Counted from the first letter of the stretch, positions 1,056 to 54,037 are shown. The stretch: DNA of 64,000 nt from Escherichia coli O127:H6 str. E2348/69 (GCF_000026545.1 NC_011601.1); one strand, 5' to 3'. Made by a program: numbers and translations. Notes: generated from the letters alone by a model not told the origin.

Positions 1056-1424
1056 AGCTTTACCTTCCAGACTTACTTAAAAGTCGATCATTGAAGACGT
1101 TGATGGTTCACAGATCATGATGATATTAACTCAGGCGAAATTGGCTTTGATAAAAACATAAGATTTTTATCACTTTCTAATAAAATTATGGAAGAGATAT
1201 CACATTTCTATATCAATATGAGAATTACAGCGGCAAGTTTATCAAACTGAAGAGAGATAGCCTGCCTCTTTATCTTATTTCTGATACTTAGCAGCAAATA
1301 AATAACGTGATAAAAAAAGCCAAACGTTTTCGTATTTTAAAAACAACCGGAAACTGGCATCAATATGTGATCAACCCCACACATTATCCGTCAAATTAGC
1401 CTTTCGCAGCCGCGTGGATAATTC

Positions 1425-1441
1425 TGGCACACTTATTGTTA
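1425..1441 (+). promoter_or_regulatory. candidate sigma-54 (-24/-12) promoter for ygeW: TGGCAC-N5-TTGT, imperfect -12
   Basis: TGGCAC hexamer about 90 bp upstream of ygeW ATG, adjacent divergent bEBP gene ygeV; -12 GC not conserved. Confidence 0.25.
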
Positions 1442-1530: not shown

Positions 1531-2721
1531 ATGATGAAAACTGTTAATGAGCTGATTAAGGATATCAATTCGCTGACCTCTCACCTGCATGAAAAAGATT
1601 TTTTGTTAACGTGGGAACAGACGCCAGACGAACTGAAACAAGTACTGGACGTTGCCGCCGCGTTAAAAGCACTGCGTGCTGAAAACATCTCAACCAAAGT
1701 CTTTAATAGTGGATTAGGTATTTCCGTATTCCGCGACAATTCCACCCGTACCCGCTTCTCTTATGCTTCCGCGCTTAACCTGCTCGGCCTTGCACAACAA
1801 GATCTTGACGAAGGTAAATCACAAATCGCTCACGGCGAAACCGTGCGTGAAACCGCCAATATGATCTCCTTCTGCGCTGACGCTATCGGTATTCGCGACG
1901 ATATGTATCTGGGCGCAGGCAACGCCTATATGCGTGAAGTTGGCGCGGCACTTGATGACGGCTACAAACAAGGGGTTCTGCCACAGCGTCCGGCTTTAGT
2001 GAACCTGCAATGCGATATTGACCACCCGACTCAATCAATGGCTGATCTGGCATGGTTACGTGAACACTTTGGTTCACTGGAAAACCTGAAAGGTAAAAAA
2101 ATCGCCATGACCTGGGCCTACTCCCCAAGCTATGGCAAACCGCTCTCTGTACCACAAGGCATCATCGGTCTGATGACCCGCTTCGGTATGGATGTCACCC
2201 TGGCCCATCCGGAAGGCTACGACCTGATCCCGGATGTCGTTGAAGTTGCTAAAAACAATGCTAAAGCCTCCGGTGGTAGCTTCCGTCAGGTCACCAGCAT
2301 GGAAGAAGCCTTCAAAGACGCAGACATCGTTTATCCGAAGTCATGGGCACCTTACAAAGTGATGGAAGAGCGTACTGAATTGCTGCGTGCGAACGATCAC
2401 GAAGGCTTAAAAGCACTGGAAAAACAGTGTCTGGCACAGAACGCGCAACACAAAGACTGGCATTGTACTGAAGAGATGATGGAACTGACCCGTGATGGCG
2501 AAGCCCTGTACATGCACTGCCTGCCAGCTGATATCAGCGGCGTATCCTGCAAAGAAGGTGAAGTGACTGAAGGCGTATTCGAAAAATACCGTATCGCTAC
2601 CTACAAAGAAGCCAGCTGGAAGCCTTATATCATCGCCGCGATGATCCTGTCCCGTAAATACGCCAAACCAGGTGCACTGCTCGAGCAACTGCTGAAAGAA
2701 GCGCAAGAACGCGTGAAATAA
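1531..2721 (+). CDS. ygeW: carbamoyltransferase YgeW (transcarbamylase-like)
   Basis: 396-aa ORF MMKTVNELIKDINS; ATG start; recognised family. Confidence 0.9.
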   Translation: MMKTVNELIKDINSLTSHLHEKDFLLTWEQTPDELKQVLDVAAALKALRAENISTKVFNSGLGISVFRDNSTRTRFSYASALNLLGLAQQDLDEGKSQIAHGETVRETANMISFCADAIGIRDDMYLGAGNAYMREVGAALDDGYKQGVLPQRPALVNLQCDIDHPTQSMADLAWLREHFGSLENLKGKKIAMTWAYSPSYGKPLSVPQGIIGLMTRFGMDVTLAHPEGYDLIPDVVEVAKNNAKASGGSFRQVTSMEEAFKDADIVYPKSWAPYKVMEERTELLRANDHEGLKALEKQCLAQNAQHKDWHCTEEMMELTRDGEALYMHCLPADISGVSCKEGEVTEGVFEKYRIATYKEASWKPYIIAAMILSRKYAKPGALLEQLLKEAQERVK

Positions 2722-2778: not shown

Positions 2779-3975
2779 ATGTCCGTTTTCTCATTGAAGA
2801 TTGATATCGCCGATAACAAATTTTTCAACGGCGAAACATCACCGCTTTTTTCGCAAAGCCAGGCAAAACTGGCACGCCAGTTCCACCAGAAAATTGCTGG
2901 TTATCACCCAACACCGCTTTGTGCGCTGGACGATCTCGCAAACCTGTTTGGTGTAAAGAAAATTCTCGTCAAAGACGAATCAAAACGATTCGGTCTGAAC
3001 GCCTTCAAAATGCTCGGCGGTGCGTACGCCATCGCTCAATTATTGTGTGAAAAATATCATCTTGATATCGAAACGCTGTCATTTGAGCACCTGAAAAATG
3101 CCATCGGCGAAAAAATGACTTTCGCGACTACCACCGACGGCAACCACGGGCGCGGTGTGGCATGGGCAGCACAGCAACTCGGACAGAATGCGGTGATTTA
3201 CATGCCGAAAGGTTCTGCTCAGGAACGCGTTGACGCCATTCTAAACCTCGGTGCCGAGTGCATCGTCACGGATATGAACTATGACGATACCGTTCGCCTG
3301 ACCATGCAACACGCGCAGCAGCACGGCTGGGAAGTGGTACAGGACACGGCATGGGAAGGCTACACCAAAATCCCAACCTGGATCATGCAAGGCTACGCAA
3401 CACTGGCGGATGAAGCCGTCGAGCAAATGCGTGAAATGGGCGTAACCCCGACACACGTTCTGCTGCAAGCCGGTGTCGGTGCAATGGCCGGTGGTGTGCT
3501 GGGTTATCTGGTCGACGTCTATAGCCCGCAAAATCTGCACAGCATTATTGTTGAACCTGACAAAGCTGACTGTATTTATCGCTCCGGCGTCAAAGGCGAC
3601 ATCGTCAACGTTGGCGGTGATATGGCCACCATCATGGCGGGCCTGGCCTGTGGCGAACCTAACCCGCTGGGCTGGGAAATCCTACGTAACTGCGCCACCC
3701 AATTCATCTCTTGCCAGGACAGCGTTGCCGCATTAGGTATGCGCGTGCTGGGTAATCCGTACGGTAACGACCCGCGCATCATCTCCGGTGAATCCGGCGC
3801 TGTCGGTTTGGGCGTTCTCGCAGCGGTTCATTATCACCCGCAACGTCAAAGCCTGATGGAAAAACTGGCGCTGAACAAAGATGCCGTGGTGCTGGTTATC
3901 AGCACTGAAGGCGACACCGACGTGAAGCACTACCGCGAAGTTGTCTGGGAAGGCAAACACGCTGTAGCACCTTAA
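2779..3975 (+). CDS. ygeX: PLP-dependent 2,3-diaminopropionate ammonia-lyase
   Basis: 398-aa ORF; fold type II PLP enzyme family; position after ygeW. Confidence 0.9.
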   Translation: MSVFSLKIDIADNKFFNGETSPLFSQSQAKLARQFHQKIAGYHPTPLCALDDLANLFGVKKILVKDESKRFGLNAFKMLGGAYAIAQLLCEKYHLDIETLSFEHLKNAIGEKMTFATTTDGNHGRGVAWAAQQLGQNAVIYMPKGSAQERVDAILNLGAECIVTDMNYDDTVRLTMQHAQQHGWEVVQDTAWEGYTKIPTWIMQGYATLADEAVEQMREMGVTPTHVLLQAGVGAMAGGVLGYLVDVYSPQNLHSIIVEPDKADCIYRSGVKGDIVNVGGDMATIMAGLACGEPNPLGWEILRNCATQFISCQDSVAALGMRVLGNPYGNDPRIISGESGAVGLGVLAAVHYHPQRQSLMEKLALNKDAVVLVISTEGDTDVKHYREVVWEGKHAVAP

Positions 3976-9375: not shown

Positions 9376-10146
9376 CTAATTCACAAATCTGCGCGCGATT
9401 GCAGGATGTTCTTGTATATCGCCCAGCCAGATTGCCTCTACGTTGTGTTGTTGCAGCGGTTGAAGGAGCTCGCTTTGCGCAATCGCATTCTCACATTGAG
9501 AAAAACGGTTAATGAACCAGACTCGCCGACAACCTTGCGGTACGTTTTTAAACGCCCCCTGAGGGTGGCGAACCAGCGCAACGAGATCGCTCAGTTGCAA
9601 GGGTGCATCAGGTGTTAACCCAGTAATATCAGCAAACTGCGACCAGCGATGGACATTTTCTGTGCTCACTTTCGCACCCAAAATATGTCCTCCCATCACA
9701 GCAATCACGCAGCAACTGCTTTTAGGTATGCAAGGTTCGTGCTCATCAGGCGCTTTTAACGGCATTCCACGCGAGCCATCTGCCTCAATGAGAATTACGT
9801 CACACTCTGGTCGTTGTACCAGTGCATCAATCGCTTCTGGCGTAAATCCCTGCACTTTTCCCTGGTTCGCTTTCCAGCAGTGAAAACAAAATGAAATGGG
9901 GGATATAAAAGACGCATGAGGAAGCATGGCGGGATCACGACAGAAAACCACGGGCCAGTGAGATGTTGGCATAAACATATGTGTCGTCGTAGTGATTAAT
10001 ACACGCCTGCCACTCGCCTGGAACAGTTCTGCCAGCCAAAAAAGCAAGCTGGTTTTCCCCCCAGCACCAACAATAGAAATCACAGTGGGACGTTTCTGCG
10101 CGCCTAAATCAATGAATAATGCCGATGGGTCAATTATACTTTTCAC
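9376..10146 (-). CDS. yqeC: putative selenium cofactor biosynthesis protein YqeC
   Basis: 256-aa ORF with P-loop GAGGKTS. Confidence 0.85.
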   Translation of the reverse strand: MKSIIDPSALFIDLGAQKRPTVISIVGAGGKTSLLFWLAELFQASGRRVLITTTTHMFMPTSHWPVVFCRDPAMLPHASFISPISFCFHCWKANQGKVQGFTPEAIDALVQRPECDVILIEADGSRGMPLKAPDEHEPCIPKSSCCVIAVMGGHILGAKVSTENVHRWSQFADITGLTPDAPLQLSDLVALVRHPQGAFKNVPQGCRRVWFINRFSQCENAIAQSELLQPLQQHNVEAIWLGDIQEHPAIARRFVN

Positions 10147-52804: not shown

Positions 52805-54037
52805 TTAGTACAGCAGACGGGCGCGAATGGTACCCGGAATAGCTTTCATTGCCTGCAGCGCTTTTTCGGCAACGTCTTCGTCGGCTTCAATATCAATAAC
52901 TACATAACCCATCTGGGCGGAAGTTTGCAGATATTGCGCGGCGATGTTGACGCCCTGCTCGGCAAAAATTTTGTTGAGCGCAGTCAGCACACCCGGACGG
53001 TTTTCGTGGATGTGCATCAGACGACGACCACCGTGCAGTGGCAGCGAGACTTCCGGGAAGTTCACCGCAGAGAGCGTTGAGCCATTGTCAGAATACTTGA
53101 TCAATTTACCCGCAACTTCCAGGCCGATATTCTCCTGCGCTTCCTGAGTCGAACCGCCAATGTGTGGCGTCAGAAGGACATTGTCGAATTCACACAGCGG
53201 AGAGGTAAATGGATCGCTGTTGGTCGCCGGTTCCGTCGGGAATACGTCGATTGCCGCCCCCGCCAGATGTTTGCTCGCCAGCGCGTCGCACAGCGCTGGA
53301 ATATCCACCACAGTACCGCGCGAAGCATTAATCAGCAGCGAGCCGGGTTTCATTAGCGAAATCTCTTTCGTGCCCATCATATTTTTGGTGGACGGATTCT
53401 CTGGTACATGCAGACTCACCACATCGCTCATATTCAGCAGGTCAGAAAGATGCTGTACCTGAGTGGCGTTGCCCAGCGGCAGTTTGTTTTCAATATCATA
53501 AAAGTAAACATACATTCCCAGCGATTCAGCCAGAATGCCCAATTGCGTACCAATATGACCATAGCCGATGATACCCAGCTTTTTGCCGCGCGCTTCAAAA
53601 GAACCCGCCGCCAGTTTGTTCCACACGCCACGGTGCGCTTTAGCATTGGCTTCCGGCACGCCGCGCAATAGCAGCAGCAGTTCGCCAATCACCAGCTCCG
53701 CAACAGAGCGCGTATTTGAGAACGGTGCGTTAAATACCGGGATCCCGCGCTTTGCCGCCGCATCCAGATCAACCTGGTTTGTTCCGATACAGAAACAGCC
53801 AATAGCGACCAGTTTTTCTGCGGCGTTGATCACGTCTTCAGTCAGATGGGTACGGGATCGCAGGCCGATGAAGTGGGCATCGCGGATGGATTCTTTTAAT
53901 TGTTCATCATCCAGCGCGCCTTTGTGAAATTCGATGTTGGTGTAACCAGCTGCACGAAGGCTTTCCAGCGCCTTTTGGTGCACGCCTTCTACCAGCAGAA
54001 ACTTAATCTTGTCTTTCTCCAGCGATACCTTTGCCAT
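52805..54037 (-). CDS. serA: D-3-phosphoglycerate dehydrogenase
   Basis: 410-aa ORF MAKVSLEKDKIKFLLVEGVHQ; C-terminal ACT domain. Confidence 0.95.
   Translation of the reverse strand: MAKVSLEKDKIKFLLVEGVHQKALESLRAAGYTNIEFHKGALDDEQLKESIRDAHFIGLRSRTHLTEDVINAAEKLVAIGCFCIGTNQVDLDAAAKRGIPVFNAPFSNTRSVAELVIGELLLLLRGVPEANAKAHRGVWNKLAAGSFEARGKKLGIIGYGHIGTQLGILAESLGMYVYFYDIENKLPLGNATQVQHLSDLLNMSDVVSLHVPENPSTKNMMGTKEISLMKPGSLLINASRGTVVDIPALCDALASKHLAGAAIDVFPTEPATNSDPFTSPLCEFDNVLLTPHIGGSTQEAQENIGLEVAGKLIKYSDNGSTLSAVNFPEVSLPLHGGRRLMHIHENRPGVLTALNKIFAEQGVNIAAQYLQTSAQMGYVVIDIEADEDVAEKALQAMKAIPGTIRARLLY

Follow-up and report, generated by a model that had tools for sequence, protein, structure and literature searches.

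Two copies of a short sequence shared by the ygeV–ygeW and ygfT–uacT spacers of Escherichia coli are, as sequence comparison and published sigma-54 binding sites lead us to believe, very probably the strongest sites of two enhancers for the regulator YgeV (IsrR). The window analysed throughout is a 64-kb segment of the E. coli E2348/69 chromosome (identity 100%). Within the E. coli cluster to which both spacers belong, ygeV is the sole annotated regulator gene, and it was reportedly a J Bacteriol 2019 study on formate-dependent urate degradation that first tied it to urate use. The cluster, from ygeV to uacT, is an anaerobic route of uric-acid and purine degradation whose genes have been published as co-regulated, and both human urate balance and engineered probiotic strains have been connected with it in recent papers. 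The description of YgeV, renamed IsrR, is so far that of a putative sigma-54 activator, its regulon being deduced from transcriptomes; the paper that renamed it reports no DNA-binding experiment and leaves its direct targets open, and a second-hand citation has ygfT expression reduced in a ygeV mutant. The literature searched defines no YgeV binding site, an earlier mention in the J Bacteriol 2019 study or in a curated database being possible.

The annotated record places the genes that border the two spacers as follows:
ygeV, minus strand, start codon at 1055
ygeW, plus strand, start at 1534
ygfT, minus strand, start at 27580
uacT, plus strand, start at 28016

With gene starts and strands as annotated, the spacers run from 1056 to 1533 and from 27581 to 28015, and both copies therefore sit between divergent genes: the first in the ygeV–ygeW spacer, where the initial annotation had put it, and the second upstream of uacT, again as claimed, in a spacer that also borders the divergent ygfT. 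The sequence bears out the exact 15-mer ATATCAATATGAGAA from which that annotation argued, at 1210-1224 and 27808-27822. No longer exact match than these 15 bp joins the two spacers, a length of at least 15 being reached in 3 of 3,000 dinucleotide-preserving shuffles, and with up to two mismatches the 15-mer matches three times in the window against 0.09 expected; by itself, the shared 15-mer is suggestive, not decisive. The third of these matches (22887, two mismatches) lies within the guaD coding sequence and was for that reason dismissed as probably due to chance. A TTACAG had been read as the adjoining part of the motif, and it is indeed present at 1225-1230 (0 nt from the 15-mer) and at 27825-27830 (after AA), but it is kept in no orthologue in the ygeV–ygeW and ygfT–uacT alignments and was therefore rejected as part of the element.

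A 13-bp dyad, T[A/C]TCA-N3-TGA[G/T]A with an A/T-rich N3, is the functional unit, rather than the 15-mer with TTACAG; it occupies 1211-1223 and 27809-27821 within the two copies. The palindrome TATCA-N3-TGATA was first derived from the ygeW, uacT and xdhA regions, and the other cluster spacers were scanned afterwards; the dyad marks all four sigma-54 promoter regions of the cluster (ygeW, ygfK, xdhA and ygfT/uacT). The first reading is thereby refined in three respects: the unit is a 13-bp palindrome, the predicted enhancers are multi-site, and copy 2 lies between two divergent sigma-54 promoters. Known site types were also compared with the two copies. A site for IHF (WATCAANNNNTTR) was rejected, the copies reading TATCAA-TATG and then AGA where TTR is needed, with CTCAA in orthologues; an FNR site (TTGAT-N4-ATCAA) was rejected as well, the sequences that begin nine bases before the ATCAA copies being CATTT and TAATG rather than TTGAT; and CRP as the reader of the dyad was rejected on a mismatch to its consensus.

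The ygeV–ygeW spacer holds these features:
1113-1125, no strand, ygeV-proximal dyad GATCATGATGATA, one mismatch, 58 bp upstream of the ygeV start codon
1198-1210, no strand, flanking site 1, TATCACATTTCTA, two mismatches to the dyad
1211-1223, no strand, central dyad TATCAATATGAGA, exact sequence, core of copy 1
1240-1252, no strand, flanking site 3, TATCAAACTGAAG, two mismatches, 29 bp from the central dyad
1366-1381, no strand, CRP-like box TGTGATCAACCCCACA from a pattern scan, between the enhancer and the ygeW promoter
1424-1440, plus strand, ygeW sigma-54 promoter CTGGCACACTTATTGTT, identical to a published ChIP-seq site

The predicted ygeW enhancer thus has three TATCA elements, at 1198, 1211 and 1240, with spacings of 13 and 29 bp. 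Only the left half-site TATCACA of flanking site 1 is conserved (GTATCACAyTT is invariant in the ygeV–ygeW alignment), and flanking site 3 keeps TTATCA-N3-TG, with TTATCA and the downstream TG invariant in the same alignment. The ygeV-proximal dyad, a possible autoregulatory site, has similar, shifted counterparts in Enterobacter sp. Bisph1 and Intestinirhabdus, at a level of conservation below that of the central dyad. The CRP-like box is conserved as GTGAyC-N5-TCrCAT, and the −24/−12 elements of the ygeW promoter, the sigma-54-like element that the initial annotation had seen beyond copy 1, are invariant. The spacer also contains, at 1318-1333, the sequence AGCCAAACGTTTTCGT, which we take to resemble a PurR box; it is only partly conserved, other genera reading GGCAAATGAATTTC. 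The core ATCAATATG is found for a third time in this spacer at 1359-1367, where it overlaps TGGCAT and the CRP-like box; as a further dyad copy it was rejected, being a misfit to the dyad and unconserved as such. A 2025 preprint describes a native Crp-binding site in the ygeV–ygeW spacer and repression of the pathway by glucose, and an RpoN genomic SELEX peak has been published for the same spacer.

The features of the ygfT–uacT spacer are:
27627-27643, minus strand, ygfT sigma-54 promoter TATGCCCATTTATTGCA, one base from the K-12 ChIP-seq site TATGCCCGTTTATTGCA
27789-27801, no strand, site A, TGCCAGAATGATT, weaker, 20 bp from site B
27809-27821, no strand, site B, TATCAATATGAGA, exact sequence, core of copy 2
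27882-27897, no strand, CRP-like box TGTGATTGCCTCCGCA from a pattern scan, between the enhancer and the uacT promoter
27932-27948, plus strand, putative uacT sigma-54 promoter TGGCACTCCACGAGCAT, TGGCAC-N5-nnGCAT kept in six genera

In six genera, site B is a perfect dyad with the uacT TGGCAC 121-132 bp downstream of it, and site A keeps CCA/TCA-N3-TGA in all six, 20-22 bp from site B. A yGTGAT-N6-TCACA-like sequence is conserved at the CRP-like box, as is ATTGCA at the ygfT promoter. The sigma-54-like element noted earlier beyond copy 2 was found at 27932-27948, with TGGCAC-N5-nnGCA kept in six genera; it is absent from the published sigma-54 ChIP-seq list, so that conservation is its support, and of the divergent ygfT and uacT promoters that flank copy 2 only ygfT has published ChIP support.

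Further copies lie elsewhere in the cluster:
9489-9501, no strand, dyad TCTCACATTGAGA, a perfect match in yqeC, towards the 3' end of the gene and ~160 bp before the start codon of yqeB
10880-10892, no strand, TATCATAATGATA, a perfect dyad upstream of ygfK, detected with the palindrome as already defined on the other regions
10983-10998, no strand, ygfK CRP-like box TGTGAGTTCATTCACA from a pattern scan, a perfect TGTGA-N6-TCACA
11061-11077, plus strand, ygfK sigma-54 promoter GTGGTGCGATTGTTGCT, identical to a published ChIP-seq site

Just outside the window, the E. coli xdhA upstream region contains TATCAATATGA in reverse complement and another site resembling it; these are two one-mismatch dyads, 21 bp apart and upstream of the sigma-54 promoter. 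One of them overlaps TTGATacgtATCAC (L002, ~1575-1600, minus strand), a 9/10 match to the FNR consensus TTGAT-N4-ATCAA, and this overlap hints at anaerobic control of xdhABC. At ygeW, ygfK and uacT, the stretch from enhancer to sigma-54 promoter contains a CRP-like box, with cross-genus conservation at ygeW and uacT. The dyad inside yqeC has a match in all six of the other enterobacterial loci that include the gene (three genera); a pattern scan saw no sigma-54 promoter between it and yqeB, and whether a real site or a coding constraint lies behind its conservation is uncertain. A perfect palindrome, TATCATCTTGATA, also occurs at 3055-3067 within the coding sequence of dpaL/ygeX; the other genera lack it at the corresponding position, and it is therefore probably a chance or lineage-specific occurrence. 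As for the genes themselves, an ISEc13 transposase insertion splits ygfK in E2348/69 (window 11846-13219) and xdhD (17965-20835) is annotated as a pseudogene with an internal stop, so the pathway may be defective in this strain, its regulatory sites being intact.

Relative to estimated, and thus approximate, start points, the dyad centres fall at −234 for ygeW, −202 for ygfK, −131 and −152 for xdhA, −198 for ygfT and −143 for uacT, in keeping with the placement of a UAS some 80-300 bp upstream of a −24/−12 element (GG-N10-GC). Published ChIP-seq shows sigma-54 bound at the downstream promoter of xdhA, ygeW, ygfK and ygfT, but not at that of uacT. The sites are symmetric and multiple (three TATCA elements at ygeW, two sites each at ygfT/uacT and xdhA), and a cognate activator gene is at hand in the adjacent ygeV, whose product has the precomputed Pfam domains PAS, Sigma54_activat, AAA_lid_14 and HTH_8.

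The dyad was also compared with its background frequency. With up to one mismatch, the palindrome has seven matches in the window against 1.7 expected, four of the seven falling in three spacers with a combined share of 2% of the window. The degenerate dyad is matched perfectly five times, always inside the purine cluster and never in the other 36 kb; its rate of perfect matches is 0.78 per 100 kb in 1.16 Mb of unrelated enhancer-binding-protein loci, and eight enterobacterial cluster loci carry one to four per 19-22 kb (at least three in seven of the eight). From the background rate, ~40 chance matches are expected per E. coli genome. Single dyads are therefore not rare, and specificity must come from clustering and context.

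Phylogenetic footprinting, which the initial annotation had proposed as a check, came out clearly in favour of the dyad. Orthologous loci were gathered by walking along contigs from YgfT orthologues and by a YgeV search of the genome collection, and came from Enterobacter sp. Bisph1, Trabulsiella guamensis and strains of Salmonella enterica subsp. diarizonae type, Klebsiella aerogenes type and Intestinirhabdus alba type. The YgeV search returned mostly generic sigma-54 activators and one true orthologue (Enterobacter sp. Bisph1); a YgeV protein search gave near-identical E. coli entries only. Of the 20 orthologous spacers, drawn from six enterobacterial genera, 19 contain a perfect T[A/C]TCA-N3-TGA[G/T]A, fixed in position between diverged flanks: at the same place in all five ygeV–ygeW spacers (one per genus, 156-158 bp from the ygeV start codon) and in all six ygfT–uacT spacers, in the ygfK spacers of five of five genera (with the downstream promoter at a distance of 162-182 bp in the three for which a scan located it), and upstream of the xdh genes in the three other genera examined, where the Enterobacter Bisph1 and Klebsiella-type loci have an extra one-mismatch partner 20-22 bp away. 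In the ygeV–ygeW and ygfT–uacT alignments, the dyad and the sigma-54 elements are invariant against a mean column identity of 66% and 53%, respectively.

The association of the dyad with YgeV-type regulators extends across phyla, into Clostridia-class Firmicutes. The closest non-enterobacterial homologues of YgeV are encoded by a Clostridium genome bin and by Sedimentibacter hydroxybenzoicus; they align along their full length with 36-39% identity and adjoin xdhABC, ygeX-ygeW-ygeY, ssnA-like and permease genes. These same loci hold perfect or near-perfect dyad pairs 18-19 bp apart and 110-190 bp upstream of canonical sigma-54 promoters (for example, TGGCACAAGTTTTGCT), and in Sedimentibacter a perfect dyad precedes the regulator gene. 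The YgeV C-terminal Fis-type helix-turn-helix carries the sequence GIGIATLYRK, and this recognition-helix sequence, exact or nearly so, occurs in all motif-associated regulators; homologues at a greater distance read S[K/R/E][T/A/S]TLYRK, without enrichment of the motif. The N-terminal sensor domain aligns across phyla. Within it, at YgeV residues ~83-93 (L001, 32946-34724), is a Cys-x2-Cys-x5-6-Cys motif that is conserved from E. coli to Clostridia and may bind a metal or a cluster.

Two further loci bear on the same family. The Clostridium bin has tandem xanthine/uracil permease genes, each with a duplicated leader and a dyad pair (L004, 6137-6168 and 7802-7833), the first pair lying downstream of the nearest sigma-54 promoter (6001); an Rfam search with the Clostridium permease leader matched no family, and the leader site pairs are therefore not a known riboswitch. 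Citrobacter werkmanii has a YgeV paralogue (38% identity, helix GISIATLYRK) divergent from a dpaL and ygeY-like operon, with the near-dyads TATCATCGTGTTA and TTTCATTTTGATA 21 bp apart in the spacer (L005, 9805-9838), an arrangement suggestive of another enterobacterial regulon of this type.

The association was also examined in reverse, by scanning metagenome contigs for a perfect tandem pair, TATCA-N3-TGATA-N5-9-TATCA-N3-TGATA. Among the 120 stretches recovered, 10 encode a YgeV-like protein with the exact GIGIATLYRK and 8 carry homologues of cluster genes, and all nine of the pairs checked (eight loci) have a canonical sigma-54 promoter ~60-250 bp away. Most of the other tandem matches are probably due to chance in A/T-rich DNA, so the motif alone is not diagnostic, the enrichment being still large.

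A closely similar site has been described for the DioR activator group of Clostridiales, whose function was given as "unknown" (Nie, Dong and Yang 2019, BMC Genomics 20:565, PMC6615313). In C. botulinum, C. tetani and C. sporogenes the published DioR sites read ATTTATCA-N3-TGATAA, those of C. difficile and C. ljungdahlii being AATTCTCA-N3-TGAGAATT; the targets are dpaL, ygeW-ygfK-ssnA-ygeY, xdhABC, pbuX, yqeB and yqeC, and most UAS in that study lie 100-250 bp upstream of sigma-54 promoters (PMC6615313). The DioR motif, TTATCA-N3-TGATAA or TTCTCA-N3-TGAGAA, is the dyad that Enterobacteriaceae show in the same two variants. In both groups several sites precede a sigma-54 promoter, by as much as a few hundred bp, and the E. 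coli targets correspond: ygeW-ygeX(dpaL)-ygeY-hyuA, ygfK-ssnA, xdhABC, uacT and ygfT. The DioR work differs in being computational and confined to Clostridiales, whereas the E. coli sites adjoin YgeV, have sigma-54 ChIP support, are spaced 20-22 bp rather than 18-19 bp apart, and are accompanied by a CRP-like box. YgeV is likened to DioR here through sites and target genes rather than through the named DioR proteins (CBO2889, CD2092 and CTC00072 among others), which a protein search with the clostridial YgeV homologue did not return; the published DioR site strings were found in none of the collected loci.

A position weight matrix was built from the 19 published DioR sites only, independently of the dyad definition made here, and its five best matches in the window were, in order of rank:
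27806-27824, 20.7 bits, copy 2 (site B)
1208-1226, 17.8 bits, copy 1 (central dyad)
10877-10895, 17.1 bits, upstream of ygfK
9486-9504, 15.4 bits, inside yqeC
53485-53503, 11.3 bits, outside the cluster

A fourth-best score of at least 15.3 was reached in 0 of 1,000 block shuffles. The shared enhancer-type site for YgeV or another regulator that had been suggested for the two copies is supported by the footprinting, the copies at ygfK and xdhA, the co-occurrence in Firmicutes and the match to the DioR motif. Most likely, as judged from sequence, the E. coli sites are the enterobacterial counterpart of the motif already predicted for clostridial DioR, and they would therefore extend a known case rather than represent a new kind of element.

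We infer that YgeV dimers would bind the dyads via the C-terminal Fis-type helix-turn-helix with its GIGIATLYRK, at two or three sites per enhancer (with spacings of 13 and 29 bp for ygeW, 20 bp for ygfT/uacT and 21 bp for xdhA). A signal, probably a purine or a urate-pathway compound, would be sensed by the N-terminal domain and turn YgeV into an active AAA+ oligomer; the DNA would loop over ~130-250 bp, and YgeV would use ATP to open sigma-54 closed complexes at ygeW, ygfK, xdhA, ygfT and probably uacT. The ygfT/uacT enhancer, between divergent promoters, could serve both, and the CRP-like box between enhancer and promoter at ygeW, ygfK and uacT may add catabolite control or bend the DNA.

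Such an arrangement has well-known parallels. The NtrC enhancer of glnAp2 and the NorR enhancer of norVW have several dyad-symmetric sites ~100-250 bp upstream of a −24/−12 promoter, reportedly three of them in a study of the NorR enhancer. The dyads here lie at a similar distance, and ygeV is divergent beside its target as norR is beside norVW, but the motif is another one, the half-site spacing is shorter, and the sensor domain of YgeV has its Cys-x2-Cys-x5-6-Cys. The closer half-sites, relative to the best-known enhancers such as that of NtrC, were counted against the enhancer reading, as was the finding that some pairs in one Clostridium contig follow the nearest sigma-54 promoter on its downstream side. 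Activator sites between two sigma-54 promoters, the layout proposed for ygfT/uacT, are known from the FhlA enhancer, which lies between hyc and hyp, two divergent operons. The hyc and hyp promoters both appear as published sigma-54 ChIP sites, whereas at ygfT/uacT the uacT promoter has no ChIP support and bidirectional use would follow from the layout only.

Other readings of the dyad differ in who binds it and to what end. It might be the operator of a different factor, responsive to purines, anaerobiosis or carbon, with YgeV binding elsewhere, which we consider improbable. YgeV binding at the dyads is, after all, something that we infer, and the spacers hold other boxes, namely the conserved CRP-like ones, the PurR-like one at 1318-1333 and the FNR-like one at xdhA; yet the dyad tracks YgeV-type regulators across phyla in which the global regulators differ, it covaries with a specific helix-turn-helix sequence, no regulator gene other than ygeV is annotated in the E. 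coli cluster, and the two copies misfit the IHF, FNR and CRP consensus sequences. YgeV might, on the other hand, be the binding protein and the sites mainly negative or autoregulatory operators, through which it represses ygeV or holds promoters off. A dyad 58 bp upstream of the ygeV start codon, the main ygeW enhancer ~150 bp from ygeV, the perfect dyad before the Sedimentibacter regulator gene and the pairs that stand between a sigma-54 promoter and a permease start codon in the Clostridium contig would all suit repression. Distances of 130-250 bp upstream of sigma-54 start points, however, are usual for activation and too far for occlusion, and ygfT expression reportedly falls in a ygeV mutant, as cited second-hand, so that a mainly repressive role seems very unlikely, repression alongside activation being compatible with the data.

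To the remaining reading, a chance likeness in A/T-rich intergenic DNA with no function, we give almost no credence. The shared 15-mer is only moderately improbable (3 of 3,000 shuffles), many spacer pairs could have been compared when it was first noticed, and its TTACAG extension is unconserved; chance is contradicted, however, by conservation at fixed positions in five to six genera, by the result with the a priori DioR matrix and by the cross-phylum co-occurrence.

Together, these results suggest that the two copies belong to YgeV/IsrR enhancers, and the predicted sites offer base-level targets for work on YgeV, connect the E. coli protein to the DioR regulon of Clostridia, given no known function in 2019, and would explain why five transcription units are co-expressed. 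The advance is incremental, in that sites of this sort are to be expected where an activator gene adjoins sigma-54 promoters and the motif had already been published for Clostridia; the result is useful, directly testable and unsurprising. It is also conceivable, with a likelihood that we would place slightly short of even, that a single enhancer code, in which a GIGIATLYRK helix recognises T[A/C]TCA-N3-TGA[G/T]A, passed between Firmicutes and Enterobacteriaceae together with the selenium-linked island for anaerobic purine and urate catabolism and was wired in Enterobacteriaceae into a switch of YgeV enhancer, CRP box and sigma-54 promoter, with one enhancer driving both ygfT and uacT. If true, the shared code and the three-part switch would amount to the complete cis-regulatory logic of urate disposal by gut bacteria.
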